64,000 nt of DNA from a virus, in IMG/VR virus record IMGVR_UViG_3300045988_100778, positions 1 through 64,000 of that record; one strand, written 5' to 3'. Of this stretch, positions 10,536-58,900 are shown in pieces; positions within the stretch are counted from its first letter, which is position 1; the number at the start of each line of letters is the position of its first letter. Both the position numbers and the translations under genes were made by a program. Below the pieces are notes generated by a model. That model did no database searches and was not told where the DNA came from. It saw nothing but the letters and a program-made list of their open reading frames with translations.

Positions 10536-10760
10536 ATGAATGCAGGTATCGTATTTTTAACTATCATTATTTTTATCGTTCATCTTATGCTGAGTGCCGA
10601 GGTAGGTTCTACGGCAGAAAGGATGAACAGAAGTTTCGGAGTGTGGATGCTTATGGCACTTATCATTTCCCCGTTTATCGCAGCCATCTTTGTTCACTGC
10701 CTGGGACCTATTCCGGTTCTCGAAAAGAAAGAGGAAGAAGACGATGAAGCCGAGAAGTGA
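10536..10760 (+). CDS. small membrane protein (74 aa)
   Basis: AGGAGGA Shine-Dalgarno at 10522-10528. Two hydrophobic spans and an acidic tail. Confidence 0.5.
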   Translation: MNAGIVFLTIIIFIVHLMLSAEVGSTAERMNRSFGVWMLMALIISPFIAAIFVHCLGPIPVLEKKEEEDDEAEK

Positions 10761-10938
10761 TAGATATATCTACTATTATGACAAACGGTCGAAGAACAAG
10801 CCGTACCGGGTTATAATAGAGGTTGAAAAGAAGAAGTACAATATCGGTTATTTCCGGACCGTGGAAGAAGCAAGAACAGCCCGTGACGAATTCATTAGAA
10901 ATCATTTTTCTGTCTCCATAAGCTGGCAACGATTGTAG
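10744..10938 (+). CDS. AP2-like DNA-binding domain protein (64 aa)
   Basis: Internal ATG 10744. KPYRVIIEVEKKKYNIGYFRTVEEARTARDEF resembles the AP2 pattern (Y-R-x-x-I ... G-x-F-x-T-x-E-E-A-x-x-A-Y-D). Confidence 0.45.
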   Translation: MKPRSDRYIYYYDKRSKNKPYRVIIEVEKKKYNIGYFRTVEEARTARDEFIRNHFSVSISWQRL

Positions 10939-11156
10939 GAAATGAATGTGATTGTGGATAAGATTGCCGAACTTTCGGAAATTCTTTCTTCCTATAGGGA
11001 TATTTCCACTAATGAGGTTATTCGGAAAATCGGGAATATCAAGCAGAACGCGATTTCCATAAAGAAAATTATTGCATAAATATACATTCAATTTGTATAA
11101 TTATTCAATTTTGTTTTGTAGTATGAGAACCTGGGTTTAGCGAAACCCGACAGACT

Positions 11157-11187
11157 GGGACGTTGTGAAACGTCCCTTTTCTTTTTC
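11157..11187. terminator. bidirectional intrinsic terminator
   Basis: GGGACGTT-GTGA-AACGTCCC (11157-11176) followed by TTTTCTTTTTC. It lies between convergent + and - genes. Confidence 0.65.
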
Positions 11188-11205
11188 TAAATCTTGACAA
11201 TCGAG

Positions 11206-11688
11206 TTAATAATACTTGAAGAATGACAAAAAACCATAATCTACCAGTCCTTTTTCTACTGCATTCGCTTCTTGTTCAAATACGATTGCATGGTAACAGT
11301 CATGGTTTATAGCCTGGATTCTCTTAATCCACTTCTTTATACCGCCACTGAAACCTGGGTGATATTTGATTAAAGCTCCTATTACGCGTACAAGCCATTC
11401 CAGGACGTAGTATAGATAGAACGTTAACGGGATAAGGAGAAGGAGCCAGGGACACGAGAAAATGCCTGCAAGACCGCTAAAAAGCACGGTTCCCGGTATC
11501 ATTAATGATTTCCACTGGTAGGAGTGGGTTTCTTCATGTTTTAGGAATTCTTCGTCGTAATACTCTTTCGTTTTCTTGCAAAGCAACCAGCAAAAAATTA
11601 GAATTGCGGAAAAGGTCGGAATGATAATTTTCGCAATTTTCGATTCATAAATCACTTTCATATTTTTACAATTTTTAAGATTAAACAT
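11206..11688 (-). CDS. membrane protein with an HExxH zinc-metalloprotease motif (160 aa)
   Basis: LKHEETHSYQW (HExxH) and a distal FEQEAN, separated by hydrophobic spans. One of only two minus-strand genes in the window. Confidence 0.55.
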   Translation of the reverse strand: MFNLKNCKNMKVIYESKIAKIIIPTFSAILIFCWLLCKKTKEYYDEEFLKHEETHSYQWKSLMIPGTVLFSGLAGIFSCPWLLLLIPLTFYLYYVLEWLVRVIGALIKYHPGFSGGIKKWIKRIQAINHDCYHAIVFEQEANAVEKGLVDYGFLSFFKYY

Positions 11689-11854
11689 GTGTAAAGGTAG
11701 TCTTTTTCGAGGAAATTTCTGTCAATATTTATTACTATTTGTAACTGTCTGATTTACAATGCGTTTTGTCAACTTTGACCGTAAATATATCTATGAAAAA
11801 ATATTTTTCTTTTCTTTCTTTTGTTGTATAATAGGAGTTAATGATATTGGGTGA

Positions 11855-11930
11855 TATATACGCGCGTGCGCGTGCGAGCGTAGGCGAGCGCGCGCAACAT
11901 GTGTGCGTGTATGTGTGTGCATGCGCGCGT
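11855..11930. repeat. GC-rich alternating purine/pyrimidine (Z-DNA-prone) tract
   Basis: ATATATACGCGCGTGCGCGTGCGAGCGTAGGCGAGCGCGCGCAACATGTGTGCGTGTATGTGTGTGCATGCGCGCGT. Nothing comparable was noticed elsewhere in this AT-rich window. Confidence 0.8.
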
Positions 11931-12060
11931 AGGGAGGGGGACATGCAAAGTGTTAACGGAGGTGAAAGGAGGAAGCGGAGAGGATAGAGCGAAGTTTAGG
12001 GAAAATGGAGGAAGAAAGAGTGATAGAAGCTCCTATAAAGGGCTGAAAAGTGAAGGGAAT
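11929..12060 (+). repeat. purine-rich (GGAGG/GAA) tract
   Basis: GTAGGGAGGGGGACATGCAAAGTGTTAACGGAGGTGAAAGGAGGAAGCGGAGAGGATAGAGCGAAG...GGAGGAAGAAAGAG. About four-fifths purine on the + strand by eye. Confidence 0.75.
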
Positions 12061-12102
12061 TTTGGAAAAAGCGCGGCCCGGCAAAAATTTTTCCGAGAAA
12101 AT

Positions 12103-12133
12103 TTTGTGGATTAAAAAATTATCCCTATGTTTG
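12103..12133 (+). promoter_or_regulatory. canonical Bacteroidota-type promoter (-33 TTTG / -7 TATGTTTG)
   Basis: TTTG 12103-12106 and TATGTTTG 12126-12133 with a 19-nt spacer. Lies ~215 nt upstream of ATG 12350. Confidence 0.5.
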
Positions 12134-12349
12134 CAGTGCTTAAACAAATGGCGGCTCAGTTCTGAAAAGAGCTGGGAACCGCAAAAGAAAAGGGGTTATC
12201 TGTAAAATTGCACTTCTACAAATACCATTTTTTAAATTTTCCCCTTTTCTTTTTGTTTTGTAAGCAGGTGTTTGAAGAAGTGAAAATATCCTTAAGCAAG
12301 ATATTCGTAAAATTGAAAATTTTGTAGAAGAGGTGCAATTTTATAGAAA

Positions 12350-13528
12350 ATGAAAAAAGATACACAGAAGCGCAAAGCTTCAAAAATTAAGAACGAATAC
12401 ATATTAGTTTTGGAAGCAATTTCAAAAGTGCTTACACAGTTTACACGTGTAGAGAATCTGAATGAGCATAAATTCAACAGAGACCCCTATTACTCATTCA
12501 TTTATCCGGATTTAAGCACTAATGAAATGGTTAAGGCTGTTTCTGCATATACAGGTCTTGACAGAAAGAAAGTGCGTAAAAGTATTACGTTTTTGAGATT
12601 GAATGATTACATAGAATTTAAGGATAGAAGTTATTGTAAGATTATTAAGAAGATTGATTTTAAAGAGATTGTAAGAATACCCGAATATTTTAAGATTGCC
12701 GCTAAAAATAAGAAGATTGTCTGGACTGAATTCAACCAGAAGGTTTTAGATTACATTAGCAAAAGAAAAGGTTGTTTTGAATACGAAAAGAAAGAAAGCC
12801 AAGTTACGGATGAAGAATTGGAAGATTTTAGAGAGCATGGAATGACTTTTGACGATGAGAAGTTTTTAAGAATAAATCGCTATAAATGGCAGGATTGCGA
12901 CCCGGTTTTTTATGAAAAGAAGGCAACAATAGCCTTTAATTTAAAATGCAGTATAGGCACCGTAAAGAATACGATTAAGAAGCTTAAAGTGTTGTTTGGT
13001 AGAGAAGTAAGTTTTAAAGATACACCAGTAGAGAAAGTTAGACGCGTTCATTATTCGCATTCCTACAGGATAGAATTACCCGATAGAAGGGAATGGAAGG
13101 ATATTTTGCTTAAAGAGCTTAAGAGTTTATGGGAAAGTGTTGTAGATAGCAGGAGAAAGGTTATAGACACGCTTAAGGATATTGTTTGGGACAGACAGGA
13201 CGAAAGGGAAGAGAAAGAAAAGGAAGGTATTTTTTGTTCTGAATATACACGTATAAGCAAGCAGGATTTTGATGCAAATGTAGGAGTGCAGTATAGTGTT
13301 TTGATGGGATTTAAGAAGAAAACCTATACTGCCATTGAAGAAGAAGAGGAGGACGAGGATTACGAAGAAGAGAATAATTATACAGAAAAATACGAGGAAG
13401 AAGATTTTGATGATGATGCAGACGATTTAGAAGAATATGAAGAAAAAGAATACGGATGGAGCAAATATCGTTGCTATGAGGCACCGGAATATGAGGGTTA
13501 TGACCCTAACGAATTTGAAGCGTATTAG
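12350..13528 (+). CDS. putative DNA-binding protein with an acidic C-terminal tail (392 aa)
   Basis: Two HTH-like segments (LDRKKVRKSITFLRLNDYI; FNLKCSIGTVKNTIKKLKVLFG) and an E/D-rich tail (EEEEEDEDYEEENN...DDDADDLEEYEE). Confidence 0.6.
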   Translation: MKKDTQKRKASKIKNEYILVLEAISKVLTQFTRVENLNEHKFNRDPYYSFIYPDLSTNEMVKAVSAYTGLDRKKVRKSITFLRLNDYIEFKDRSYCKIIKKIDFKEIVRIPEYFKIAAKNKKIVWTEFNQKVLDYISKRKGCFEYEKKESQVTDEELEDFREHGMTFDDEKFLRINRYKWQDCDPVFYEKKATIAFNLKCSIGTVKNTIKKLKVLFGREVSFKDTPVEKVRRVHYSHSYRIELPDRREWKDILLKELKSLWESVVDSRRKVIDTLKDIVWDRQDEREEKEKEGIFCSEYTRISKQDFDANVGVQYSVLMGFKKKTYTAIEEEEEDEDYEEENNYTEKYEEEDFDDDADDLEEYEEKEYGWSKYRCYEAPEYEGYDPNEFEAY

Positions 13529-13531
13529 AAT

Positions 13532-13774
13532 ATGGAAACGGTAAGTGATTACATATACAGAGACTATGAAAGCGAAGATGTAGAACTGTACGCGGAACAG
13601 ATGATACGGGAACGCATAGCGCGTGACGAGAAGCGACGCGAACAGATAGAAAAGGCTTTGGCGAAAGCCGAAAGGACCAGGAAACGGGTAGAAAACAGAA
13701 GACGGAAGTATATAAAGACAAACCCTATCCGCGCGAAGTACAAATACCCAGTATTGGATAAATATTCAAGTTAA
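13532..13774 (+). CDS. hypothetical charged protein (80 aa)
   Basis: ORF track; 3 nt after the previous stop. Confidence 0.55.
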   Translation: METVSDYIYRDYESEDVELYAEQMIRERIARDEKRREQIEKALAKAERTRKRVENRRRKYIKTNPIRAKYKYPVLDKYSS

Positions 13775-13853
13775 AAGCTTGGTTATTTGACTGATAATGC
13801 CTATTTTTACCGTTGTAATTGCAATTTCGTTATAACTTAAAAAGGCATTATTC

Positions 13854-14546
13854 ATGGATAATAATAGAAAAGAAGAGAAAGTGTTCGGACGTGCACAATT
13901 TGAACAATTTCTCATTGACAACGACTACGAAGCGTTCACCGCAAAGCAGGTAGCGGCTTTTGCTACTGATGTTTTGAACAAATCGGAAAACAACGAATTG
14001 GACGAGTTCGAGAAAGCATGTGCGGCTGCGGACTGGAAATCACTGGAAACGGTTAAAGTGCTGAATGACCTCTACGAGGAAGAACCTATGTTTGTGAGAC
14101 CCTCACAGGTGGAAGTGATACCAGGAAAGGAAGGTATCTTTAAATCAATGTCCGGGAACCGTGATATGTTGCGATACAAGGAAACCCCTCTAAACATTTT
14201 CAAGGGCATAGCCGGAATGTGCGTATCTGATGATATAGAGAAGGCACGGAAGGGTGAACCTATCGGAACCGTAAAAAGCTGGGGAGGGAAAGAATATGTG
14301 AAGACCGCGAACGGCTGGGTACGACGCCAGGGAATCAAGACAAAGGAGACCGCGAAGGAGGAGAAGCCGAAAGAAAAGAAAGGCGGTTTCCCTACAGTTG
14401 AAAAACTCGTGGCTGCGGCCGCAAAGTCGGGGCACAACCCTAAAGAGGCAGAGAACGTTATCAGAGAACGCTATGACTATCTGAAAAAGAAATATCCGGA
14501 AGCCTCATCAAGTAAACTTGTACACATTGCATATACAATTTCCTAA
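13854..14546 (+). CDS. hypothetical protein (230 aa)
   Basis: ORF track. Confidence 0.6.
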   Translation: MDNNRKEEKVFGRAQFEQFLIDNDYEAFTAKQVAAFATDVLNKSENNELDEFEKACAAADWKSLETVKVLNDLYEEEPMFVRPSQVEVIPGKEGIFKSMSGNRDMLRYKETPLNIFKGIAGMCVSDDIEKARKGEPIGTVKSWGGKEYVKTANGWVRRQGIKTKETAKEEKPKEKKGGFPTVEKLVAAAAKSGHNPKEAENVIRERYDYLKKKYPEASSSKLVHIAYTIS

Positions 14547-14559
14547 AATTCCGTCGCAT

Positions 14560-15063
14560 ATGATTATGGGAAAACTACATAAAATAAGGGAATACGTAAT
14601 GAGTTTATATTTTCCCGTGTTGTTGAGCATACCTATCTCTTTTTCCAACACGACATCCTTCATTGAGAAATATGTGTTTCGGGACTGGGAGTTCTTGAAA
14701 TACCTAATGATTCTTATAGTGATAGACACACTTGTAAGCTGGGTATATCATATCAAGAACAAGGACTTTTCAAGCAAGGGCTTTTCAATGATTATCACAA
14801 AGCTTTTCATTTATTCCGCTATTCTGATTGTTTCGCATGTGATGGGGAACTTTACGGTGGAAGGCGGCAATGTGGAGATATACACATGGTTCCGTGCCGT
14901 GGTGTGTAACGCGCTTATAATACGAGAATCAATCTCAATCGTGGAGAACGCGGCAAAGGTAAGCCCTACTTTGGTACCTCAGAGAATTAGAAAATATCTG
15001 TCTGATTTCGACGAATTCGGAGACAAGAAACCGAAGGCGATAAAGGAAATGAAAGGAGAATGA
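14560..15063 (+). CDS. holin (Holin_4_1 / LL-H-like)
   Basis: Multiple hydrophobic spans and the C-terminal signature IRESISIVENAAK (E-x-x-S-I-x-E-N). ATG 14560 or 14566 follows the previous stop. Confidence 0.6.
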   Translation: MIMGKLHKIREYVMSLYFPVLLSIPISFSNTTSFIEKYVFRDWEFLKYLMILIVIDTLVSWVYHIKNKDFSSKGFSMIITKLFIYSAILIVSHVMGNFTVEGGNVEIYTWFRAVVCNALIIRESISIVENAAKVSPTLVPQRIRKYLSDFDEFGDKKPKAIKEMKGE

Positions 15064-18046: not shown

Positions 18047-18058
18047 AAATTGTTTACA

Positions 18059-19759
18059 ATGGGAAAGAGAAAAGGAAAGATAATACAAAAAGCGGAAAAG
18101 CCGGATTTGGTTGCAAGTCTTTCGAGTTTGTCCATTGAAGAGATAGACATGCTGCAAAAGGCTGCACCTATGGCATTCCAAAGCAAATTGCAGGCTGCGT
18201 TAAACTCAAACGATGCAGGGGAGATAATGAAGGCTAATTTGTATCTGGGAGAAATCAATAGACAGCCTACAAAAATTCAGTCTGTTTTCTTTGACCCTAA
18301 CGACATATCCGGTAACGGAAGAGGATTCAAGGATTCTAAAGGGGTTCTGTCCTTTTCCGTATTGCGCCGGATGGGGGACATTCATATAGTGAAAAGTATC
18401 GTGTCTACACGCGTGGAACAGATAATGAACTTTATGGATTTTTCGGAAGACGAGCAAAAGGAAGGCTTCACAATCAGAAAAAAGAAGAGCCTTTTTTCTA
18501 CCGGGGATGAGAAATTGACAAACGAGGACAAGAAAAAGATTTCAAAGATAGTTGATTTCCTGGAAAAGGGAGGATGGACGGACAAATGGGACAATGTGGA
18601 CAGCTTGCAGGAGTTTGTAAGCAAGATAATGTTGGACAGTCTCACATTAGACCAGTTGGCATTTGAGATGGTGCGCAACAGAATGTGGGAATTGCAGAAA
18701 TTCCGCGCTGTGGACGCTTCTTTGATACGTTTTCTTGACAGCGTAGACCCCAGACAAAGGGAAGGTTTCGAGCAGTACAGATTCAAGGGACATTTACCAC
18801 GTTACTGTATGGTATGGGAAGAGATGATTCTGCATAACCCTATAACGAAGGAACCGATATTGTATTATCCGTGGGAGCTTGGTTTCGGCATCAGAAACAA
18901 GACGTCTGATGTGAGAAGAAACGGGTATGGAGTGTCGGAATTGGAAACGCTGGTAAACATTATTACCTGGATATTATGGGGCTTTTCTTATAATGCGAAT
19001 TTCTTTAGCCAGGGGTCACAACCTAAAGGGTTTATCAATATAAAGAACCCCAATATATCAAACAGTACATTGCAGGAGTTTAGGCAGGCATGGACACAGA
19101 CGATGGCAGGCGTTTATAACAGTCACCGCACACCCGTTATAAACGGTATCGATTTGGAATGGGTTGATTTACAGAAACTTAGCAATCGTGATATGGAATT
19201 TAACGAATGGATAAAATTCCTTATTATAATGACATGTTCCGTATATCGTATAGACCCGTCCGAACTTGGATTCAATTTCAAGGAAAGTCAGCAGATATTC
19301 GGACAGGACGGACAGCGAGAAAGATTGAAGCACAGCCGTGAAAAAGGTTTGAAGCCTCTATTGATATTTTTACAGGGTATCATTACAAAGTATATTGTGA
19401 GCGAGTTGGATGAAAACTACGAGTTTGCATTTACCGGAATAGAGGTGGAAGACGAAGAAGCACAGGTAAAACTGGATTCTGAAAAACTGAGTAGCGGCAT
19501 GGTTTCTATGCAGGATATATTTAAGAAGTACAACGGACGAGACTTTGACCCGGAAAAGGACATCATTCTTAACCAGGTGTACCAGGGAATGAAGCAGGCA
19601 GAAGAACAGAATAAAATGTTCGGAGCTTCACAACCTGGACAACAGCCGGAAGGTGTACCGGAAAATGAAGAAGACCCGTTCGCACAGTACAAGTCATTTA
19701 ACGACAATCCTATAATGAAACCAGCAGTTGACTATTATTTAAAAAATCTTTACAAATAA
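18059..19759 (+). CDS. portal protein
   Basis: 566 aa. YNANFFSQGSQPKGFINIKN resembles the conserved portal motif, and it sits upstream of MuF, protease, scaffold and capsid genes. ATG 18059 preferred over TTG 18050. Confidence 0.8.
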   Translation: MGKRKGKIIQKAEKPDLVASLSSLSIEEIDMLQKAAPMAFQSKLQAALNSNDAGEIMKANLYLGEINRQPTKIQSVFFDPNDISGNGRGFKDSKGVLSFSVLRRMGDIHIVKSIVSTRVEQIMNFMDFSEDEQKEGFTIRKKKSLFSTGDEKLTNEDKKKISKIVDFLEKGGWTDKWDNVDSLQEFVSKIMLDSLTLDQLAFEMVRNRMWELQKFRAVDASLIRFLDSVDPRQREGFEQYRFKGHLPRYCMVWEEMILHNPITKEPILYYPWELGFGIRNKTSDVRRNGYGVSELETLVNIITWILWGFSYNANFFSQGSQPKGFINIKNPNISNSTLQEFRQAWTQTMAGVYNSHRTPVINGIDLEWVDLQKLSNRDMEFNEWIKFLIIMTCSVYRIDPSELGFNFKESQQIFGQDGQRERLKHSREKGLKPLLIFLQGIITKYIVSELDENYEFAFTGIEVEDEEAQVKLDSEKLSSGMVSMQDIFKKYNGRDFDPEKDIILNQVYQGMKQAEEQNKMFGASQPGQQPEGVPENEEDPFAQYKSFNDNPIMKPAVDYYLKNLYK

Positions 19760-19765
19760 AAAATT

Positions 19766-20695
19766 ATGGAAACTTTCGATGATTTAAAGTTGGATAGATA
19801 CATAAACAAGGCTCTTTTGGAAAAGAGCCTGGGAAGACCAGAAATGTATGACGGTCTTCTGGAGATTGCGAAGGCACAACAAGGCGTATATGTGAACAAC
19901 GCAGTAAACCGGAAGCTTGGCATTGTTGGACTGCCATATAAGAAGAGAAAGGCTACAGAGGAAGAGAAAGCCGACTTAACCAAGACAACAGAAGACCTTT
20001 ATAAAGAAGGTAGTGCGTGGAAGCGAGACAGACAGATTAAGGTACATAACAAAATAAAGTCTGAGTATTTTAAGAAAATGCTGTATGAGACCAAACCGCG
20101 TGCTTATCTTATGCTTGGAGGTGGTGGTTCTGGAAAAGGGTATTATCTTAAGAAGATGAAAGAGAAGGACCCGTCTATAGACAAGTTACCCGTTATTGAT
20201 GTGGACGATATGCGCGACATGATACCGGACTATGAAAGGGTGAAGGGGATAGACCCGAAGAAGGCATCTTCCTATGTGCATGAAGAGGTATCGGATATAG
20301 GAAAACAGATTGATAAAGAATATATTTCCAAAAAATCTTCTTTTGTGAAAGACGCTGTTTTCGGGAATCCAGCAAAACTTGAAAAATTGGTTGATGATTT
20401 GAAGGCACAGGGTTATGACGTTCATCTTGTAGGTGTGGCAACCGATTTCAGTACAGCTTTGGACAGAATACAGAAACGGTTTGAAAGAACGAAACGGTAT
20501 GTCCCTACAGAAGTGGCGAGAAAAGGACATAAAGGCGCGTCCGCATCTTTCAAGAAAGTTATCGAAACTCCATTGAAAGACAAATTCAAGTCCGTTAAAT
20601 TGTATGATGGGAATTCCGATAACGGGGTGATTTATGATAACAAAGTGTTAAATCAAAAAGAACTTGATAGGTTTCTTAAAAAAATAGACTTATAA
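19766..20695 (+). CDS. zeta-toxin-like P-loop kinase domain protein
   Basis: Walker A LGGGGSGKGY; VIDVDDMRDMIPDYERV; GYDVHLVGV; RTKRYVPTEV. These match the order of conserved blocks in the Zeta_toxin family. Confidence 0.6.
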   Translation: METFDDLKLDRYINKALLEKSLGRPEMYDGLLEIAKAQQGVYVNNAVNRKLGIVGLPYKKRKATEEEKADLTKTTEDLYKEGSAWKRDRQIKVHNKIKSEYFKKMLYETKPRAYLMLGGGGSGKGYYLKKMKEKDPSIDKLPVIDVDDMRDMIPDYERVKGIDPKKASSYVHEEVSDIGKQIDKEYISKKSSFVKDAVFGNPAKLEKLVDDLKAQGYDVHLVGVATDFSTALDRIQKRFERTKRYVPTEVARKGHKGASASFKKVIETPLKDKFKSVKLYDGNSDNGVIYDNKVLNQKELDRFLKKIDL

Positions 20696-27742: not shown

Positions 27743-29257
27743 ATGGATTTGTATAATTATAGCAATCAAAACGGTACTGGCGACGTACTGGGCGGCATGG
27801 ATTCAGCAGAAATCTCGAAAGCGATGGAAGCAGGTCTTAAGACCGGAATGCAGTATAACAACGAAATCAACAATGGTGGTGGTCTGAAAGTTGAATCCCT
27901 GGATTCAGTCTTGAAGATTCTGGGCAACCGTATGAACCAGTTGGTTTATTACATGGAAATGCCTAAACATAAGATTGACAACACTGTACACCAATACAAT
28001 CAGTTGTATAAGTATGGTGAGGAAGTCGGTATTTTCAACGCAGAAGGCGAGACCCCACAGGAAACCGATTCTCAATACAGACGTAAGTCAATAGTAACCA
28101 AGTTCATGGGTGTTTCCGGACAGGTTACACATCCGGGAATGTTGGCTAAATTGGCTGGTAACATGGATATGTACCAGAAGGAAGTAGAAAACAAGACTAT
28201 CCTTTTGAGTACCATTATTGACACACGTTTGGTTGACGCTGATTCTTCTTGTGTAGAAGAACAGTTTGACGGTGTTTTCCGTCAACACATGTTGGGTATC
28301 AACGAAATGGATGGCGGTACGGCAGAAGGTAAGACTTCTGAACAACTGTTAGACGGTTACTTCAACAGCCCGGCAGTTATCGACGCACAAGGTTCTGTGT
28401 TGAATGACAACTTGATTCAAGACGCTGCAAACGTTGTAGTGAACGTTTATAACGGTTATATCGACCGCATCATTTCTAACCCGATTGTGTTTAACAACTA
28501 CGTTAAGATGTTCCACGAAAGCAAGCGAGTTATCGTAGGTCTTGCAGCTTCTGTAACTGGTGCTACTATGGGTCAGTCTGTAAATGATGTTACAACCCAG
28601 TTCGGTAAAATTAACATTAAGAATGACCGTTTCTTCGACGAACGTAAACCTATCACAGTAGGAAAGGGAGCTTCAAGTGCAAAGGCCCCGGTTACTCCGG
28701 TTGTTAATACTACCATTAAGGTTAATACAGCCGATACCAAGACTAATTTCGGCAACCATGCTGGCTCTTATGGCTATTTGGTAACAGCAAAGAATCGTTA
28801 TGGTGAATCTGCACCTCTGAATATCACACTTACTGGTGCCAATGCTGTAGCTGCTTCTGATTCAGTAGAATTTGGCTTTACTGCTGGTGTGGGTGGTGCA
28901 TATCCGGCTACTTGCTTCGTGGTATACCGTACCAAGAAGAATGCGGTTCTGAATGCAAACACTGAATACTATCCTATCTTTGAGGTTCCGGCTTCACAGA
29001 TGGCAACTGGTTACGATGGCGCTGCTGAAAATTGTGTACGTGACCGTAACCGTATCATTGCTGGTACCAAGTCTGCATTGGTTTACTACAACGATAGTCA
29101 GATTAACGAATACTTGCAGTTTGCTGATACTATGAAGATGGACTTCGCTGTTACATCTCCAAGCAAGCGCTTTGCAATTCTGAACTACGGTACCCCCGTA
29201 CTGTATCAGCCTGCAAAGATTGTACGTATCGTTAACATTGGTGAAGAAGGCTTGTAA
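27743..29257 (+). CDS. major capsid protein (HK97-fold type)
   Basis: 504 aa. Position after protease and scaffold, ESLDSVLK and VTKFMGVSGQVT blocks, and a strong terminator downstream. Confidence 0.8.
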   Translation: MDLYNYSNQNGTGDVLGGMDSAEISKAMEAGLKTGMQYNNEINNGGGLKVESLDSVLKILGNRMNQLVYYMEMPKHKIDNTVHQYNQLYKYGEEVGIFNAEGETPQETDSQYRRKSIVTKFMGVSGQVTHPGMLAKLAGNMDMYQKEVENKTILLSTIIDTRLVDADSSCVEEQFDGVFRQHMLGINEMDGGTAEGKTSEQLLDGYFNSPAVIDAQGSVLNDNLIQDAANVVVNVYNGYIDRIISNPIVFNNYVKMFHESKRVIVGLAASVTGATMGQSVNDVTTQFGKINIKNDRFFDERKPITVGKGASSAKAPVTPVVNTTIKVNTADTKTNFGNHAGSYGYLVTAKNRYGESAPLNITLTGANAVAASDSVEFGFTAGVGGAYPATCFVVYRTKKNAVLNANTEYYPIFEVPASQMATGYDGAAENCVRDRNRIIAGTKSALVYYNDSQINEYLQFADTMKMDFAVTSPSKRFAILNYGTPVLYQPAKIVRIVNIGEEGL

Positions 29258-37594: not shown

Positions 37595-38870
37595 GAAATT
37601 TAAAATATTCTATTTATATTTGTGGTATGTATTTAACGGAACAACATATAATAACAGTTAATGATAAGAGGTACAAGGATTTAGACCGGATTTGTTTCTT
37701 ATCCAAGAACTTGTATAATGCGGCTTTATATATCATAAAGCAAGAATTTCTTGTTTCCGGGAAATGGATAAGGTCTGTAGAACTTAATAAAAAGATGGTT
37801 GCAGAAAACAATGTTGATTTTAGGGCTATGAGCGGTTCCTCTTCCCAGCAAATTTTAATGGCTTTGGATAAGAATTTGAAATCTTATTTTTCAGCCATTA
37901 AAGCATGGAAAAGGGATAACAAGAAATTTACCGGATGCCCTAAATTTCCGAAATACAAACATAAGACAAAAGGAAGAAATGTATTTTCTTATTCTTATGT
38001 GCAATTCAGACATAAAGGAGAATATATTTACTTTCCAAAGAAAGAAGGTCTGAAACCGTTAAAAACGAAATGCAAGGAAGGAACAGTTAAGCAAGTCAGA
38101 TTTGTGCCGAAAGCAGATTGTTATGTAATAGAATTGGTATATGAATCAGAAGTAAAGGAACAGTTACTAAACAACAATAGATATATGTCTATTGATTTGG
38201 GGGTTAACAATCTTGCTTCTATTGTAACGAATACGAGTAACAGGGCTGTTTTGGTAGATGGCAAGAAATTAAAGTCTATCAACCAGTATTATAACAAGAA
38301 AAAATCTAAAGTTCAATCACAATTAAAGAAAACAAATGGAAAGGAAAATTCGAGACGGCTAATGAACCTTACAAGAAAAAGAAACAATAAGGTCAAGGAT
38401 TATTTGCATAAGGCAAGCAAGGAAATTGTAAGCATGTGCTTGAAAGACAACATAACTACATTGATAGTAGGACATAATGACGGATGGAAACAAGAAGTAA
38501 ATATGGGTAAAAGAAACAATCAGAATTTTGTTTCAATTCCGTTTGAAACTTTCATATCAATGTTAAGGTATAAATCTGAAAGACAAGGACTAAGATTTGT
38601 TGAAATAAACGAATCTCACACGTCAAAATGCAGTTCTTTAGATTTAGAAGAGGTAAAACATCATGATAGTTATATTGGAAAGAGAGTAAAAAGAGGTCTT
38701 TTCAGAACAAAGGACGGAATTTTACTCAATGCAGATATAAACGGAGCCTATAATATTATGAGAAAAGTAAAGGGGGATGCAGCAATGCCACCCTATAGAG
38801 GGTTTGGGTATAACCCAGTTAAGAAATTTATTAACAAATAGATACAAGTGTAAACATGTATATAATTACC
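37550..38870 (+). mobile_element. tnpB cassette bounded by the 9-bp direct repeat AAGACAGTG
   Basis: The repeats lie at 37541-37549 and 38871-38879. The interval contains only a promoter and tnpB. Confidence 0.55.
37627..38841 (+). CDS. tnpB: TnpB (IS200/IS605-IS607 accessory RNA-guided nuclease family)
   Basis: SIDLGVNNLASI (RuvC-I Asp), VGHNDGWKQEVNMGKRNNQNFVSIPF, EINESHTSKCSSLD and GKRVKRGLFRTKDGILLNADINGAYNIMRK (RuvC-III). 404 aa. Confidence 0.85.
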   Translation: MYLTEQHIITVNDKRYKDLDRICFLSKNLYNAALYIIKQEFLVSGKWIRSVELNKKMVAENNVDFRAMSGSSSQQILMALDKNLKSYFSAIKAWKRDNKKFTGCPKFPKYKHKTKGRNVFSYSYVQFRHKGEYIYFPKKEGLKPLKTKCKEGTVKQVRFVPKADCYVIELVYESEVKEQLLNNNRYMSIDLGVNNLASIVTNTSNRAVLVDGKKLKSINQYYNKKKSKVQSQLKKTNGKENSRRLMNLTRKRNNKVKDYLHKASKEIVSMCLKDNITTLIVGHNDGWKQEVNMGKRNNQNFVSIPFETFISMLRYKSERQGLRFVEINESHTSKCSSLDLEEVKHHDSYIGKRVKRGLFRTKDGILLNADINGAYNIMRKVKGDAAMPPYRGFGYNPVKKFINK

Positions 38871-40643: not shown

Positions 40644-41297
40644 GTGAAAACAAGTAGTAATTTCGTGATTGTCTATGACTTTGAAACCGGGGGATTGCCA
40701 AGCAAGGAGAAGCAGGCTTTTTTGGACATCCCTTTGGTAGAAATGGCTATGTCGTGCATAGACATGAAAAAGTTGGAAATAATAGACCGTGCAGAAATGA
40801 TATTCCCGTATAACTACAAGGAAGGACTTGCAGGATATTCGGAGGAAGCAACGGCAGTACACGGCATAACAAAAGAAGTCCAAGAAGAGAATGCGGTGCC
40901 ATTGAAAGAGATATACAGCACTTGCAAGAAATGGTTCGCCAAATACAAGAATCCACGCCAGATGTGTACGCTTGTAGGGCACAATATCGTAGGATTCGAT
41001 AACCCGTTTCTGAAAAACTTCTTCGCCTACATGAACGACGATATAGACAATTACGTAAAATACTACATAGACACGATGCAGTTTGCACACATGGTAGCTT
41101 TGGAGCAGATGGACTACAAGCTGGGCACGTGTTGCCAGGCTGCCGGGATTGACCTTGTGGAAGCGCACAGGGCGCAGCACGATGTGGATGCGAACGCGAT
41201 GTTGTTCATTTCCTACGTGAAGAAGTTAAGGGGTGAAGGCGTGGAAACGGTGGAGAAGAAAGAAAGGAGATATAGAGAGGACTTCCAGTTATGTTGA
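40644..41297 (+). CDS. DEDDh 3'-5' exonuclease (DnaQ-like)
   Basis: Exo I VYDFETGG, Exo II LVGHNIVGFDNPFL, Exo III AHRAQHDVDANA. GTG start. Confidence 0.8.
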   Translation: MKTSSNFVIVYDFETGGLPSKEKQAFLDIPLVEMAMSCIDMKKLEIIDRAEMIFPYNYKEGLAGYSEEATAVHGITKEVQEENAVPLKEIYSTCKKWFAKYKNPRQMCTLVGHNIVGFDNPFLKNFFAYMNDDIDNYVKYYIDTMQFAHMVALEQMDYKLGTCCQAAGIDLVEAHRAQHDVDANAMLFISYVKKLRGEGVETVEKKERRYREDFQLC

Positions 41298-43405
41298 CGG
41301 GTGACGGAAAAGGAATACTTACAAATAATCAGCTTACATATCTGTACAATGCGGTAGACAATATCATAGAGAGACTGCCGGAAAGGGCGCTTAACCAGTT
41401 GTTGGAAGGATATGGAAACGACGTTGATACCATGCTTAGGGAAATGGTGCATCAGTCGGAAAAGGCGCTGTATCTGGGTCGGACGCTGGATTCAGAAAGT
41501 TTATCCTATGTGGATAACGTGAAAGCCTCTATGGACAATACGCTTAAAATATTGTCCCTCAATTATTTCATAACAACCATGTTGCCTAAATTCCGGTTAG
41601 GGTGGCGTAATATAGAGTGGGGAAATCTCACTCAATTATACCCGTGGAGTTGTTATTTATGCGCCCGGGCGAGTGGCAAGTGCATGAGTGCTGATACATT
41701 GGTTGTAATGTATGATGGGGCTTTGAAGAAGATTCAAGATATAGAAGTTGGTGATAAAGTGATGGGTGTTGATTCAACACCGCGTACAGTGCTGCAATTA
41801 CATAAAGGTGTTGCACCTATGTATAAAGTGAGACAGTCCAAAGGAATGACTTATGAAGTGAATGAAGGACACTTGCTTTGCTGTTATTATAACGGTTATT
41901 TCATTGATGTAGAAGTAGATGCTGTATGTAGACAACAGAAAGATATAAGAAAGTTGTTTCTGGGATATAAAGTCAAGAATATAGGGAAAGGAACACCAGA
42001 ATTTGATTATTCTTCATTGAAGATTGAACCTATTGGAGAGGGGGAATATTATGGTTTTGCGTGCGATGGAGACCATAAGTTTTTATTGGAGGATGGGACG
42101 GTTGTACATAACAGTTATCAATGGTCTTATGCCTTTATTCTGTGGCGTTTATGGTCCTACACAAGACCGACTGCATATAGACAAGACACGGTAGACAATG
42201 CCAACCGGAAAGAAACATGCTATATTACCAATACTTTTACACTGGCAAAGGTGCAGATAGCGAAAGTGACGGAAGAGATAGAGGCGAACGACTTAATAAA
42301 GGAAAAACTGAACCCTTATAATAAGGCTTCAATCGGAGAAACAGCCATAAAGACGGAAACGGGGAGTACGCTGCATGTACGCGGTAAGGATTCAATGATT
42401 CGCGGTCTGCATGTGGGGGCTTGCTTGTGTGACGATATGCCGGATGAAAGCTCCCTATATTCGGACGAACAAAGAGAGAAATTGAAAGAACTTCTGAAAG
42501 GTACTATAGAACCGATTGTAGAGCCATACGGTTACTTTCTTGTAACTGGTACGCCTTATTCTTCTGCACCGAATGAATTGTACCAGATATTGAAGGCAGA
42601 CAAGCGTTTCTATTGTTTTGAATATCCGATATTGTTTCCGGATGGCAGACCGTTGGCACCAGACAGATACACGTTTGAACAGATATTGGCGAAAAAGGAA
42701 GAACTTGGAACGATTGTGTTCAACCGTGAATACTTGGTGGTTCCTATCAGTGACACGTCAACGATATTTCCGTATGAATATCTGATGCGTAGCGTTATAG
42801 GAATGGAAACGATACGTTTTGCGTCAAGTATAGACGATTTTCCTTTCAAGCTTACAAGGGTACATATAGGTGTGGACTTTGCGGTTTCCGGTAATATTGG
42901 AGCGGACTATACAGTGTATTCGGTATGGGGCAAAGATGCGATGGATAACTACTATTTGTTGTACTATTACCGGAAGCGCGGTATGTCGCATAACGAACAG
43001 GTGGATAAGATTGTACAGCTTGACCGACTTTTCCACCCCAATAAGATACGGTGTGAGGCAAACGGTTTCCAGTCCATATTGTCCGGACTGGCAAAGGAAA
43101 GAGGGCTTAAGAATATAGAACCATTTACGACAACGGAAGGAAACAAGAAAGATTTGTATACTGGACTACCTTCTTTGTCCGCAATGTTTGAAAGAGGACA
43201 GATAAAATGCCCCTATGCGATAGGAGAAACGAGGCAGGCGGTTGACTTGATGTTCGGTGAATTTTCTTCTATTACATTTAGAAGTGATAACGGGAAATTG
43301 GAGGCGGCAAGTGGTCACGATGACGTGGTAATGTCGTCGTTCATTTCCTTAAATAGCTTACGCGAAGACGATAAAGAAGTACAAGTAAGTGTAGAATTAA
43401 TATAA
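41291..43405 (+). CDS. terL: terminase large subunit, interrupted by an intein
   Basis: Walker A ARASGK|S split by the intein; Walker B LHVGACLCDDMPDE; nuclease blocks IGVDFAVSG and SGHDDVVMS. Confidence 0.85.
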   Translation: MLTGDGKGILTNNQLTYLYNAVDNIIERLPERALNQLLEGYGNDVDTMLREMVHQSEKALYLGRTLDSESLSYVDNVKASMDNTLKILSLNYFITTMLPKFRLGWRNIEWGNLTQLYPWSCYLCARASGKCMSADTLVVMYDGALKKIQDIEVGDKVMGVDSTPRTVLQLHKGVAPMYKVRQSKGMTYEVNEGHLLCCYYNGYFIDVEVDAVCRQQKDIRKLFLGYKVKNIGKGTPEFDYSSLKIEPIGEGEYYGFACDGDHKFLLEDGTVVHNSYQWSYAFILWRLWSYTRPTAYRQDTVDNANRKETCYITNTFTLAKVQIAKVTEEIEANDLIKEKLNPYNKASIGETAIKTETGSTLHVRGKDSMIRGLHVGACLCDDMPDESSLYSDEQREKLKELLKGTIEPIVEPYGYFLVTGTPYSSAPNELYQILKADKRFYCFEYPILFPDGRPLAPDRYTFEQILAKKEELGTIVFNREYLVVPISDTSTIFPYEYLMRSVIGMETIRFASSIDDFPFKLTRVHIGVDFAVSGNIGADYTVYSVWGKDAMDNYYLLYYYRKRGMSHNEQVDKIVQLDRLFHPNKIRCEANGFQSILSGLAKERGLKNIEPFTTTEGNKKDLYTGLPSLSAMFERGQIKCPYAIGETRQAVDLMFGEFSSITFRSDNGKLEAASGHDDVVMSSFISLNSLREDDKEVQVSVELI
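41681..42112 (+). mobile_element. 144-aa mini-intein in the TerL P-loop
   Basis: Begins CMSADTLVVMYDG, has block B NEGH, ends DGTVVHN, and is followed by Ser. There is no room for a homing-endonuclease domain. Confidence 0.8.
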
Positions 43406-52976: not shown

Positions 52977-55900
52977 ATGATTACTAAGACAGCGAATACG
53001 ATTGCAAATTTAAAGAATTTGTGGATTGAAATGTTTTTAAACAAGACCGACCGTGTTTCAAACATTGCGGACGGTTCTGTACTTAATGGCGTCGCTTATG
53101 GTACCGCAAAGGTGGCGCAAAAAGCGATAAAGGATATTGCCATAGTGGAGGCGCAGATTTTCCCAAAGTCGGCAACAGGCGATTATCTGGACAAATCGGC
53201 CGCGTTGTTCGGTGTAAGTCCGAGAAAAGAAGCGCTTGGCTCCTCTACTTATGTACGTGTTTTTGCCGAGCCTGGCACGCATTATGAGGTAGGAACAAAG
53301 TTTATTTCAAAGAACGGAGTGCAATTTACTGTAGACCAACCTTTTACGGTTGATAAGTCGGGATATGGATATATCAGTGTAAGAAGCGTTATCACTGGGT
53401 CTGCTACCAATGTGGAGGCAAACAGTATTACGGAAGTATCGCCAAGACCATTGACACATATAGAGTGCACGAATGAATATGCGGCTATCGGTGGACGTGA
53501 TTATGAGGACGACGAGACATTCAGAAACAGAATAATAAATTATAATAACAAGCTTTCCACTGACACTATGGAAGGCTGGACGCAAATATTCCAGGATTTA
53601 GACCCGCGCATTTTAAAGGTAATGAATGTTGGGCTGGGTGAGGACGGAAAGACACACATTTACCTTGTAACCCAAAACGGGTCTTTCTTTACGGATGATG
53701 AATTGGAAGAATTGCTTACAAAAGCTACACCCTATTTCGGACTGACCGAACTTGACTTGCAAGGGAATACGCTTGGAATTGTGATAGAAAATGCAAAATG
53801 GATGTATGTAGGCGGTGAAGAGGGGGTGGATTTCCGTGTGGAATTGTCGCCTAATGCAGTGATTGCGGATGTAAGAAAAAATATCCAGATTGCAATGACG
53901 AAGTATCTGGATTTCCGTTTCTGGGAAGCAGGCAAAAAGGTAGAATGGGATGATTTGCTGGAAGTGGTGAAGACTGCGGAAGGCGTTAAGTATGTACCGG
54001 ACGAATATTTCTTTCCCTATTTTGACGAAGAGGTGCCTTTGAACATGTTGCCGCGTATCAAGGGATTCAGAATGCGAGACTTGGAAGGGAATATTCTGTA
54101 TGATTCGGGCAGCAGTTTGTCCAATATTTTTTATCCGGCAGGAGAAAGCGACATATATAAAGGTTCTCAATCGGTTATAGCGTCACAGAAATATTTGTGT
54201 TCATTTACCGTAACCAATACCAAGAATGTAGCCGTACCGGGCGCATATATAACAATAGGAAACAAGGTAATCATTACGGACAGTAACGGTACGGCAAACA
54301 TTCTTTTGGAAAATGGGGAATACACATACATATTGTCAAAAACGAACTGGACACAGAAGACAGGGGAGTTTGTTGTTCTGAACAATCCTATTTACATAAA
54401 CATAAATGATTTTATTGCAACACCCTATCCGGTTACGTTTACTGTATATGAAGGTGAAGCGCCCTTGCAGGGAGTGACTGTAACTACAAGCGTTTACACG
54501 TCAGAAACGGACGATAAGGGGCAGGCAGTCATTAACCTGGAGCCGGGAACCTACGAATACAAGCTTGAAAAGTCGGGTTTCCAGACCATAGAAAGCGTAT
54601 TTACGGTCGAAAATCAGCCAGTAGACATATTTCAAAGAATGTTTCTTACAAAAATGAATGTAAATTTTGCTGTAATTGACAGAAACAGAAGTATTTACAT
54701 TCCGGAAGCAAACATCACAATAAATGACATAAAGGAAAAGACGGATAACGAAGGGCAGGCAAGTATGGGATTGCAAACCGGGAAATACGAAATGAGGGTT
54801 GCAAAAGAAGACTATCAAGACCTTGTAAAGGAAATTGAGATTGTTGGGGAAGACCCTAATTGTATTCTCGTCGAAATGACGGCAATTCCGTATGCGATAA
54901 AGTTTACGGTGCTGGATTCTGCTACCCACATGGTTCTGGAAGGAGCAACGATAAAGATAAATGGTTCTACCTATCTGACCGACAAGGAAGGTATAGCGAT
55001 TATAAGTTTGCCGAACGGAACCTATGAATATACGGTTTTCAAGTCCGGTTATATGTCCGTTAATGATTTTGTAGTGGTGGAAGGTTCGGAAGTTTCTAAA
55101 ATTGTGGAATTGGAACAAGCTTTCTATACATTCCGCTTGACTGTACGGGACATTGAAAACGGTAACTATATCCAGGGTGCAGAATTGCAGATAAACGGAG
55201 AGACGCGTGTAACGAACGTCAACGGTGTTGCAAGCGTAACACTTGGAAACGGTGACTATGAATATACGGTAACGCACAGAAACTATAAGAGATATACCGG
55301 AACTGTGACTATCAAAGACCAGGACGTGCCGGAAACAATTTACTTGGAATTGAGAGATACGGTAATAACATACACTGCAACGGACGCGATAACGAAGGCT
55401 CCTATTTCCGGCGTATATATCGAATTGATAAACAAGGGAACTGGAATTAAGGTGGATTCCGGTTACACGAATGATATAGGTGTATTGCAGCTTGGAGCGG
55501 AAGCAGGGGAATATACTTGGAATGCGACACACAGATATTATGATGCGGTAGAAAACCAGTCGATAACGCTTGAAAAATTGAAGGATATAGACCTTCCCTT
55601 TACTATGACAAGAAGGGAAATCGAACCGGAAGTTGACGTAATAGAGAATATCCCCGGTGTGTCCGGTGATGCTACTACAGTAAGGTTCAGTGGTGAAAAT
55701 ACGGCTGAGACGTTATCTAATGACAGTTATTATTACATAGTTCATACACCGGAAAACTTCGTTATTCCTAACAAAGGGGTGACGTTTGATTTGATGGAAC
55801 ATGTAAAAACTTTTCGACGTGCAGAAATTGGCGGTGAGGACGAGCCATACGATTTTGCAAGTGGAGGTGCAGAATTGGTATTCAACGTATCGAATGACGA

Positions 55901-58900
55901 AATAGCTTCTTTGGAAGGTACGATGTTGACAGTGCAGCCGAATGTGACACGTGATGCACAGCCGAGAACTTTCTATGTGGATGTGACGATAACGACTCCG
56001 GTAAGCCAGGTGACTGTAAAGATAACTGCTGAACAGAAAGCTGCTCTGAACTTCAATCCGGTTAAGGACGGAATTGTCGTTTCGGTAAAAAATATGTACA
56101 ATGATAATGTACGGGAATATACGACGAACGCGGCAGGAAAGATATTTCCGGAAGTGATGTTGGGTATTGACTATCAGTTGACAATAAAGGAGAAAGGTTT
56201 CTACGAGAACAACGGCTTGCTGATTAAGAACTGGGGCTTCGGTGCGAGTGTACCTACACTGATGGAAATAACGGCTTCAAAAAGGCTTGAATTGAGAGTA
56301 AAACAGCAGAATACCCTAAGACCGCTTGAAAATGCGACTATAAAGGTGTCCGGAATGTCACTGCCTCAAACCGTTACGTCCGGAAGTGATGGTTCGGCAA
56401 GAGTGTACATTTCACCTATTGCAATGAGCTATGAGTGTACAGTAACAGACCATACGAAAAAGACTGGAACATTCACACCCCCGTTGTCGGCTGATTATAT
56501 GGATATAATCATGGGTTATGCTGCAATGACATTCAGTCTGACATTAACAGCAAGTAACCCCTATTCCAAGGCGGCAGAAAGTTGTCCGGTAACGGTTACG
56601 AGTGCATGGAGCGGAACATCTTCACAATCATATAGTTTTTCTGGAACAACGGATGCAAGCGGACAATTGACATCACAAGGAAATGGAAATTTCAATATAC
56701 CGCCTGGAAATTATACGATAACCTATGGAGGTGGAAACAGTAATTTCGACGGTAAGACAGAAAATATCTATCTGCCTACGGACAAGACGCATTCAGCAGT
56801 ATTAACAAGAAGAACGAAATCAGTCACATTCACGGTAAAGGAAATAATACCCTCTATTTCGACTACAGCATCAAATCCGGTAAAGACAGGTCTTGTGCTT
56901 GCATGCTATTACAACGACAATAGTACATCTTCGGGTGCGAATGTAACGACGAATGCAAGCGGACAATTTACAAAAACAGTGTATGCAGGAATTGCAGAAC
57001 GTTTCCAGGTGCAACCAATAGGATTCTATTCTGGAAACGGTGCAATAGCTACAGTCAATTATAAAGATGCAAACACAAAAGACCTTGTATATACATGTTC
57101 AAAGAGAATTCCGGTATATATCACATCCAATCTGTATGGTGAGTTAAGTGGCGCATCAGTGACGTTCAACGGAATGTCTGTGAACCAGACAGGAACGACC
57201 AATACGGACGGGATAGTGCAAATGTACATATCTCCGGTAAATATGTCTTACAGTGTAAGCAAGCAGCATTACAATACCAAGACTGGGAATTTCAAGCCTA
57301 CCGGAACAGAAACAAGAATGGATATTGAATTGGAGGCGAAGGAGTACCCGGTCACTTTCCATGTGTCAACACAAGGAGTTTTGCCACCGGACGGAATTTT
57401 GGTACGTGTGACAAACAACGCATTGCCGGACATTGTATTTGAGGGCGAGACGAATGTGGAAGGAACGATAGTCATGCCGAATGTTCCGGTAGGAGAATAC
57501 ACCTATGATGTTCTTGCAGGTGAGGTTTCATCCGACACATTCTTCCATCCTCAAAGTGAAAGTGGTACAGTGTTGGATGTAGAAGTGCAATATGAATTGA
57601 TTAACGCAGGTATTCAAGTTTCGGAGGTGTATGGTACGGCAGGAAGGGCGTATCTGTCAAATCAGACTATTACAATGACTTCCAAGGCAGGAACGATAAA
57701 GCTTACTTTGGATGAGAACGGTTATACCAATCAGTTATTAATAAAGGGATTGGAATACACGTTTACGACTGATTCATACCCGGCTTTTTATAGCAACCCG
57801 ACACAATCCTATACATGGACCGAAGACGGTGTGATATGGCCGTTCAACTTGAATGTGACCTCAAAGATAACGGTCAATGTAAAGGATGTATATGTGAAAA
57901 ACAATATCCAGGGAGTAACGGTAGCTTACAACGAACAGATAGTGACGACGGATGCAAGCGGTAACGCTTCATTGTTCCGGTCAGCACTGACAAAGGACTA
58001 TTCTTTGGATAAAGAGGATTATAGTACAGTAAATGGAACCATTGCACCTACCACGGCTTCACCACTCAATGTCACGATGTTGAGAAACAAACATGTAGTG
58101 ACGGTACAGCAGTATGAAGTAATACCAGGTGGTGCGAGTGTAATTTTGGACGGTGGTTATAATTTTACTCTTAATTATACATCAGCAGCAGGAAACGGAA
58201 CTATTAGTAGTGGTACAAATACATTTGAGGCATATATCGGCATTCCTATCACATTTGCAATAGTAGCAGAGAACAGAAGGGTATTTTATAGTAATCCAAC
58301 TCAAACCCATACATTTACATCGGCAGGTGAGAAATGGAACATGAATCTTACTTGTGCGAAACAGATAACCGTAAATGTGAAAGACAATGTGCCTGGCGCG
58401 AATGTACAGGGAGCTACGATAAACTATTTTACACAGACAAAAACGACGGATGCGAGCGGAAACGCAGTCTTTTATTGGAGTGGTTCAGACCCACGTAATA
58501 TATCAGTAAGTGCTTCAAATCTGGAATCTTATACCGGACAGATAGCTTACAATTCACCAAATCCGTTCAATGTTGTAATGACACGTGCAGCCAATCCGGT
58601 TACACTTGTAGTAAGAGAAATAACGCCAGCACAAACAACTTATTATCAGAACTTACAGATAAAATACACGGTAGGAAGTGCAACCGGAACACTTACTACA
58701 AATGCGAACGGTGCAGTGACATTCAATGGATATATAGGTACGGAAATGACGTTTACGGTAGTGGGACATCCGGAATTTTACAGCAACCCGACACAGAAAC
58801 ACACCTATACAGCCGCCAATCAGTCATGGACTATGGATTTGACGGTAACAGCAAAGATAACGATTAATGTCAAATCGAATGTACCGAGCGGAACAAATTT

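Follow-up and report, generated by a model that had tools for sequence, protein, structure and literature searches.

An optional, structure-prone insert in the mosaic control region of an uncultured human-gut phage

Z-DNA tracts of the (CG)n/(TG)n type were reportedly used in the plasmid work of Rahmouni and Wells as sensors of the negative supercoiling that transcription drives between divergent promoters. Here we describe a natural tract of CG and TG steps in a virus, IMG/VR record IMGVR_UViG_3300045988_100778, of which we analysed positions 1 to 64,000 (the window, 64 kb of a genome of ~106 kb). The CG/TG tract is located in the gap between two divergent genes, one for a membrane protein of 151 amino acids (aa) and the other for a hypervariable protein of 392 aa. 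Phage modules that couple a protein to nearby DNA sites offer further comparisons: in lambdoid phages the O protein and its iterons are followed by a strand-asymmetric A+T-rich region, and temperate phages carry heteroimmune repressor-operator sets as immunity-type modules. At oriF and oriG of phage T4, a promoter with a downstream non-specific unwinding element suffices and forms a persistent R-loop, and a heterologous element can substitute for the native one (PMC3016281).

We found that the CG/TG tract is a real and stable but dispensable insert, interchangeable with another cassette at the same position. Our preferred explanation, which is tentative and to which we give a probability of roughly 0.4, is that it represents an optional, structure-prone insert in the compositionally constrained spacer of a mosaic control region, acting via supercoil-driven structure. 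The descriptive part of this explanation is solid; the mechanism we infer. Several observations speak for it: the two cassettes are allelic and both structure-prone, the purine-rich tract next to them recurs in other lineages, the flanking promoter-like sites diverge, the left part of the gap is linked to the downstream gene, the product of that gene is probably DNA-binding, and the tract occurs at a single locus. The gap and its flanks are laid out as follows.

11206-11661, minus strand: 151-aa membrane-protein gene with an HEETH (HExxH) motif; the listed open reading frame (ORF) reaches 11688, and relatives support a start at 11661.
11689-11751, minus strand: conserved region upstream of the 151-aa gene, 93-97% identical in most close relatives.
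11692-11699, minus strand: Bacteroidetes-type -7 box TACCTTTA, promoter-like.
11752-11835, no strand assigned: left module, allele a, with a nested palindrome, an AT-rich stretch, a pyrimidine run and TATAAT.
11854-11931, no strand assigned: CG/TG alternating tract, predicted to be Z-DNA- and cruciform-prone.
11932-12060, plus strand: purine-rich, C-poor tract with the G cluster GGGAGGGGG at its 5′ edge (11932-11940).
12061-12133, plus strand: near-invariant block with P1, a Bacteroidetes-type promoter TTTG-N19-TATGTTTG (12103-12133).
12134-12349, plus strand: structured leader of the downstream gene.
12350-13528, plus strand: hypervariable 392-aa gene, with two probable winged-helix units and an acidic C-terminal tail.

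Under the proposed mechanism, the constrained part of the spacer would be the strand-asymmetric, C-poor, purine-rich tract with its 5′ G clusters, the CG/TG tract being an add-on, and the spacer would act through DNA structure rather than through a specific sequence. RNA polymerases diverging from the promoter of the 151-aa gene and from P1 would build negative supercoiling between them, which would convert the CG/TG tract to the Z-form or extrude a cruciform, whereas runs of G would fold instead in the majority allele. Such a transition may absorb torsion, and would thereby tune or insulate both promoters and the nearby protein-binding sites.

As in the supercoil sensors, the alternating run of CG and TG steps is placed between two promoter-like sites pointing apart, but the phage tract is natural, polymorphic and interchangeable with a G-run cassette, and its transition is a prediction. 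The locus shares with the lambdoid modules a divergent protein allele that travels with matching repeats, an adjoining strand-asymmetric tract and exchange among close relatives, whereas its repeats are upstream of the gene and not inside it, its asymmetric tract is 47% G+C and its protein has no initiator homology. Immunity modules likewise link divergent alleles of a helix-turn-helix (HTH) protein to divergent palindromes in a divergent-promoter gap of near-identical genomes; here, however, a large protein of 392 aa combines two HTH-like units with an acidic tail, and a long purine-rich spacer is atypical of such modules. The window showed neither an integrase gene nor lysogeny genes. With T4 oriF and oriG the locus has in common an element defined by a physical property and replaceable, paralleling the exchange of CG/TG for G-run sequence (PMC3016281). 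The T4 element is A+T-rich and 3′ of a mapped promoter, in contrast to the G+A-rich tract described here, into which no promoter was recognised.

Two alternative cassettes at one position

A preliminary description of the window, made from the sequence alone, had reported a GC-rich alternating purine/pyrimidine run in the gap. We found it as described, with unbroken runs of 23 nucleotides (nt; 11854-11876) and 35 nt (11897-11931) and GC fractions of 0.61 and 0.54, respectively. The longest alternating run elsewhere in the 64 kb is 14 nt, and the number expected by chance over this length is 2e-3 for runs of at least 23 nt and 3e-7 for runs of at least 35 nt. The region also stands out from its surroundings, as had been claimed: GC content over 75 nt reaches 0.68 at 11860-11934, a value that equals the window maximum (window mean 0.40), and the CpG density of this segment is the highest in the window. 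By sequence, the tract qualifies as a candidate Z-DNA-forming sequence (flipon), an alternating run of about 12 bp or more that is rich in CG and TG/CA steps. As single-stranded DNA it is predicted to fold at -25 kcal/mol (z = -2.6). A role as a restriction-site decoy was rejected, with GCGC and CGCG not avoided elsewhere (observed/expected 0.85 and 0.74).

Close relatives were collected as 64 IMG/VR contigs through the neighbouring 151/160-aa gene, at a protein identity of at least 94%, and cassette typing covered 65 near-identical genomes. The CG/TG tract is present in 17 of the 65, and at its position the other 48 have a G-run cassette, GGGGGTTTGGGGGAGGAAGGGG...GGGGAAGGGGG, that is predicted to be G4-prone; every genome has exactly one of the two. 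The CG/TG tract, 57-85 bp long, aligns as an insert flanked by ...ATATA and TAGGGGG.... A 37-mer (11860-11896) is identical in every carrier, as is the left flank, and the 3′ half (11897-11930), which varies in both sequence and length, has at least three versions. Three genetic backgrounds retain the tract.

Furthermore, 16 IMG/VR contigs contain the 37-mer, and another 15 metagenome contigs contain a 24-nt core, in each case as a single copy and always at this locus, which excludes the assembly chimera that the preliminary description had considered. With one copy per contig, at this locus only, and none in 185,579 bacterial and archaeal GTDB genomes, a mobile or host-derived element was rejected as well.

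The majority (G-run) allele has five runs of four to five G within ~50 nt, at the equivalent of 11854-11931 (relatives L004-L067). The G-run alleles reach G4Hunter scores of 2.1-2.4; the highest score in the window is 1.52, and the allele of the window itself scores 1.24. Judging from these scores, the sequence that replaces the CG/TG tract is another extreme, structure-prone one.

The exchange of cassettes is part of a wider pattern. In nearly all of the 64 IMG/VR relatives, 11689-11751 and 12052-12198 are conserved, and the ~300 bp between them are replaced in most. The gap is a mosaic whose modules reassort: the left palindrome module occurs as a, b or c, the cassette as CG/TG or G-run, the tail in three types and the leader in two, and the downstream gene has several alleles. 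This reassortment among close relatives supports the earlier suggestion of a recombination hotspot.

The same suggestion had offered a replication origin, a packaging site or a terminus as roles for the clustered non-B-DNA elements. Comparison across related phages found the tract mostly absent (48 of 65 close relatives and all four distant ones) and its 3′ half variable, which counts against all three for the tract. GC skew is positive on both sides of the locus and its cumulative curve climbs monotonically across it without inflection, a weak test given that 64 of ~106 kb were covered and the genes are co-oriented; the skew check for an origin thus returned no switch at the locus. As for packaging or a terminus, the large terminase gene is 29 kb away, and one of the 64 IMG/VR contigs ends in the tract. 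Because the tract is absent in most relatives, the skew is monotonic, the terminase gene is distant and contig ends do not build up at the tract, an essential origin or packaging role of the CG/TG tract is contradicted.

Dispensability also raises the question of whether the tract is neutral, that is, a slippage- or hairpin-generated expansion that arose once and spread by homologous recombination, next to a purine richness that is mutational or residual. We regard this as unlikely. It would explain why most relatives lack the tract, why the 3′ half and the total length vary like a simple repeat, and why the 37-mer and left flank, identical in all carriers, point to a single origin; variable columns are also about three times as frequent in the segment around the tract (57 of 153) as in the neighbouring gene (57 of 456). 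Neutrality does not sit well, however, with a gap of 500-700 bp that persists across divergent lineages although phage genomes are compact, with a replacement allele that is also extreme and structure-prone (G4Hunter 2.4), with purine richness that recurs in unalignable sequences, or with retention of the tract in three different genetic backgrounds.

The purine-rich tract and its promoter-like flanks

The preliminary description had reported that the run is followed by ~130 bp of about four-fifths purine, and 79% was measured at 11929-12058 (plus-strand mean 58%, standard deviation 6%). Base counts at 11931-12060 are G 52, A 51, C 9 and T 18, and the tract is 47% G+C. Ranked by purine content, 11929-12058 is third among the 130-nt segments of the window, and the two higher ones lie inside long ORFs. 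The name “polypurine tract” overstates the case: the sequence is purine-rich only, its longest unbroken purine run being 14 nt, which is ordinary for a genome whose window has 107 such runs of at least 12 nt, one of them of 26 nt. H-DNA (triplex) was rejected on the same grounds. The pyrimidine run said to precede the tract was confirmed at 11804-11822, and with 19 nt it is the longest homopyrimidine run on the plus strand of the window.

A core, AAAGTGTTAACGGAGGTGAAA (11947-11967), within the purine-rich tract is common to different alleles, and substitutions among the G-run alleles in this tract are mostly between A and G. A target of a diversity-generating retroelement was rejected, with no template copy in the window and changes between A and G rather than from A to any base; no reverse transcriptase was present among the ~30 ORFs scanned in the window.

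We next turn to four distant lineages, in which the 151-aa protein is only 52-58% identical. All four keep the gene order and a gap of 500-700 bp; none has an alternating run longer than 9 nt, and neither cassette is present. Repeats are lineage-specific, with many iteron-like GGACCAC/GGACAAC copies in L089, two copies of TATAACC-N3-GGTTATA in L091 and GAGATTTGAG repeats in L084. Located 3′ of the repeats is a purine-rich stretch on the same strand, with 100-nt purine maxima of 0.72, 0.74, 0.81 and 0.66, the first three within the top ~1% of windows at their loci. These stretches are unalignable and always upstream of a TAnnTTTR box, which is followed by ~100 nt to a strong intrinsic terminator, a second box and the gene. 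The layout of pyrimidine run, AT box and purine run is sharp only in the focal lineage. On the basis of these comparisons, purine-rich composition is common to most of the clade without sequence conservation, and the CG/TG tract is not.

On the left side of the gap, the box upstream of the 151-aa gene has counterparts in the distant lineages, where TATCTTTA or GATCTTTA is found 35-40 nt before the start codon of the homologue, the same distance as the window box. A minority of close relatives have a different 11689-11719 and match only from 11720. On the right side, the full motif TTTG-N17-23-TAnnTTTG, to which P1 conforms, has seven matches in the window, of which five are intergenic and on the plus strand. 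The CG/TG tract is upstream of both promoter-like sites, in the ~350 bp between them.

Two elements of the earlier picture of this gap changed. What was taken for a strand switch is probably a single inverted gene: in relatives no gene but the 151-aa one has the opposite orientation, and in this part of the window too it is the only gene that clearly does, so that ORF 10708-11091 (minus strand) is likely spurious. Nor is the gap the only large non-coding region, several other ORF-poor gaps being present in the window. The 151-aa protein has a weak PHROG match annotated as “protease” (E = 1e-5) and no Pfam or NCBIfam match. Its divergent arrangement with an HTH gene recalls, by analogy, protease/repressor pairs.

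Conservation of composition without conservation of sequence would also be compatible with a function at the RNA level. In such a case transcription of the tract would begin near the TATAAT/AATAGGAG box (11827-11837) and yield a purine-rich, C-poor RNA that does not code for protein and is largely unstructured 3′ of the GC hairpin; it would act, for example, as a decoy or sponge, or else as an untranslated segment resistant to Rho. The purine loading matches the coding-strand bias of the genome (plus strand 58% purine), each of the three left-module alleles has, at its end, an AT-rich box and then AATAGGAG(G), and the plus strand at 11836-12100 folds somewhat better than shuffled sequences (z = -2.3). 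We nevertheless consider this distinctly unlikely. No promoter of Bacteroidetes type or sigma-70 type was recognised facing the tract, the TATAAT box at 11827-11832 is unsupported, and sigma-70 promoters and terminators in the gap are no more numerous than expected by chance. Furthermore, no terminator follows the tract, and a separate invariant promoter, P1, is located just downstream of it.

As a recurrent phage promoter motif, AATAGGAG was rejected: seven matches were found versus three expected, and they are not at intergenic plus-strand sites. A known RNA was likewise rejected, with no Rfam match at the gathering score and, in a scan at E ≤ 5, only compositional microRNA matches far below threshold (26 bits versus 90).

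Small proteins were also considered for the tract. The ORFs at 11899-12114 (plus), 11735-11944 (minus) and 11953-12147 (minus) are not conserved in frame or start among relatives, in agreement with the previous view that they are not genuine. In 4 of the 13 alleles examined there is no plus-strand ORF of at least 30 aa, in one more the only such ORF is unrelated, and open frames across the tract are expected from its low T content. There are no gene calls in the gap of the distant relatives.

A hypervariable gene linked to upstream palindromes

In otherwise at least 94%-identical genomes (relatives L004-L067), the gene downstream of the gap occurs as alleles of 392, 432/473 and 187 aa, and the 392- and 432-aa forms are 31% identical to each other. 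All forms, including those of the distant lineages, align as one family with two HTH-like units, an orphan family with 12 matches among 1.84 billion representatives. Sub-threshold HTH matches in Pfam were obtained for 7 of 16 family members. A first structure model of the 392-aa protein was unusable, with a predicted local distance difference test score (pLDDT) of 41, and an AlphaFold2 (AF2) model from a more diverse alignment (pLDDT 55.8) has two helix-turn-helix-plus-hairpin units. Winged-helix regulators dominate the top 50 Foldseek matches, of which none is significant. The profile and model data, each of them weak, agree in suggesting that the product is probably DNA-binding, with two winged-helix units. 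A comparison of the 392-aa profile with PDB sequences returned an EGFR match only, which we rejected as spurious. The 392- and 432-aa forms have the C-terminal motif KYRCxEAPEYExYxPNEFEAY in common.

At the left module of the gap we distinguished three unrelated alleles, and each carries palindromes or repeats of its own. In the window, allele a contains the nested palindrome ATTTAC...GTCAActTTGAC.GTAAAT at 11752-11786, then an AT-rich, T-rich stretch (~11787-11835) with TATAAT at 11827-11832; the palindrome GTCAACTTTGAC is unique within the 64 kb. This allele has the one nested palindrome and no direct repeats, and the other alleles have two to three palindromes.

We typed linkage in 64 genomes and 15 metagenome contigs and found it to be complete: module a always occurs with the 392-aa form, b with the 432/473-aa form and c with the 187-aa form. 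This linkage is maintained despite reassortment of the cassette, tail and leader modules that are located between the left module and the gene. Because the left-module allele always matches the gene allele, the simplest reading is that the palindromes are putative binding sites of the downstream protein itself.

The leader of the gene is also allele-specific in part. Its predicted folds are a hairpin at 12151-12182 and a stem resembling a terminator (12183-12195/12241-12253), with a T-run after it, and the ~45-nt allele-specific loop of this stem (12196-12240) is predicted to pair with 12326-12349, the 24 nt just 5′ of the ATG, or alternatively with 12267-12285. RNAalifold recovered the conserved hairpins of the leader and not the allele-specific pairing, which was tested by comparing cognate with non-cognate duplex energies. 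Across 39 distinct leaders, the loop-distal duplexes average -29.0 kcal/mol for cognate and -15.1 ± 4.5 kcal/mol for non-cognate combinations; RNA of the plus strand is favoured in 37 of the 39, and ~10% of the pairs are G-U. From its predicted folds, the leader looks like a translational or attenuation control, reminiscent of plasmid Rep leaders.

We also weighed a replication origin with a cognate initiator as a reading of the whole gap rather than of the CG/TG tract. The winged-helix protein would bind the allele-specific repeats, the adjacent AT-rich stretch and pyrimidine run together with the purine-rich, G-cluster tract would be the site of duplex opening or of an RNA-primer R-loop, the CG/TG or G-run cassette would aid opening under negative supercoiling, and the leader would limit the initiator as in plasmid Rep systems. 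Protein allele and repeats co-vary as in lambdoid initiator-origin specificity, L089 has many iteron-like GGACCAC/GGACAAC copies, and a strand-asymmetric tract adjoins the sites in most lineages, with G clusters at the 5′ edge of a G-rich, C-poor sequence. In addition, the 392- and 432-aa alleles have a conserved acidic/aromatic C-terminal tail but differ strongly in the DNA-binding part, the leader is predicted to occlude the start codon via covarying long-range pairing, and T4 oriF/oriG are a precedent for a sequence-independent, swappable unwinding element (PMC3016281).

Despite these parallels, we see an origin as possible but doubtful. The downstream protein has no Rep family match in Pfam, PHROGs, NCBIfam or PDB and no other initiator homology, and its best Foldseek matches, none significant, are transcription regulators. 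The window allele offers a single nested palindrome without direct repeats, the purine-rich tract at 47% G+C is no A+T-rich unwinding element, and no promoter reading into the tract was recognised. There is no skew change at the locus, and the CG/TG tract is dispensable.

A more specific version is, in our opinion, quite improbable. Here the gap and downstream gene would be the origin and initiator of a large Bacteroidales phage, with a swappable non-B cassette (Z-DNA/cruciform in a quarter of strains, G-quadruplex in the rest) placed before an R-loop-prone purine tract, and with the modules for initiator specificity (palindromes and protein allele) and initiator dosage (the covarying pairing of the leader) exchanged between co-circulating strains.

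The proposed structural explanation, the phage and the meaning of the locus

Returning to a structure-prone insert in a constrained spacer as the explanation that we prefer, several points weigh against it. The invariance of the 37-mer across three backgrounds may reflect a sequence-specific function or just recent recombinational spread. The purine tract of lineage L091 is weak, and the bias towards exchanges between A and G is modest compared with neutral expectation (10 transversions versus ~17 expected of 60 substitutions). The HTH assignment of the downstream protein is sub-threshold. The idea of a supercoil buffer rests on the twin-domain model and on plasmid work with (CG)n inserts, and the purine-richness of the tract, beyond mere structure-proneness, is not explained by a spacer that acts through structure.

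The source phage is tailed, has a genome of ~105-108 kb and is known only from human-gut metagenomes; its lineage is uncultured and widespread in the human gut. Genes that could be recognised in the window include the following.

14518-15063: holin gene.
18050-19759: portal gene.
27743-29257: capsid gene.
41291-43405: large terminase gene, interrupted by an intein (Hint/intein insertion).

The capsid protein has ~33% identity to those of the Bacteroides phages DAC19-23 and SJC03, a distant kinship, and is also related to those of SPO1-like Bacillus phages. A megablast of 11000-14000 against the INPHARED phages gave no match, and no annotated close relative is present there. No transfer RNAs were found. 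The window also encodes a BACON-domain protein and a TnpB-like gene; the latter, ORF 37627-38841 (OrfB_IS605 and Cas12f1-like TNB domains), is located within the phage structural region. Directly 3′ of the portal gene, ORF 19766-20695 has a Zeta-toxin/AAA_33 kinase domain (E = 1.5e-34), and a single ORF of 3426 aa occupies 52977-63257. In the distant relative L084 the portal gene has an intein carrying a LAGLIDADG domain.

Many IMG/VR contigs of the lineage are 83-89 kb long and have the locus ~38-42 kb from one end, compared with 105-108 kb for those that look complete. Such lengths point to another part of the genome, rather than the 11.8-12.1 kb locus, as the possible site of a repeat, a variable region or a recurring break in assembly. 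In the whole window GATC is observed 0 times versus ~218 expected, GGCC is depleted (25 versus 98 expected) and CCGG is enriched (253 versus 98), which suggests strong avoidance of a GATC-specific host restriction system.

Taken alone, the CG/TG tract matters little, being a dispensable, simple-sequence-like insert. The occurrence of CG/TG or G-run sequence at one position in near-identical genomes, on the other hand, amounts to a natural swap experiment on the function of non-B DNA in a bacterial virus. The locus as a whole is a compact and experimentally approachable candidate for a specificity module, regulatory or replicative, in which a fast-evolving, probable winged-helix gene is tied to the palindromes upstream of it and has a leader with covarying, predicted long-range pairing.

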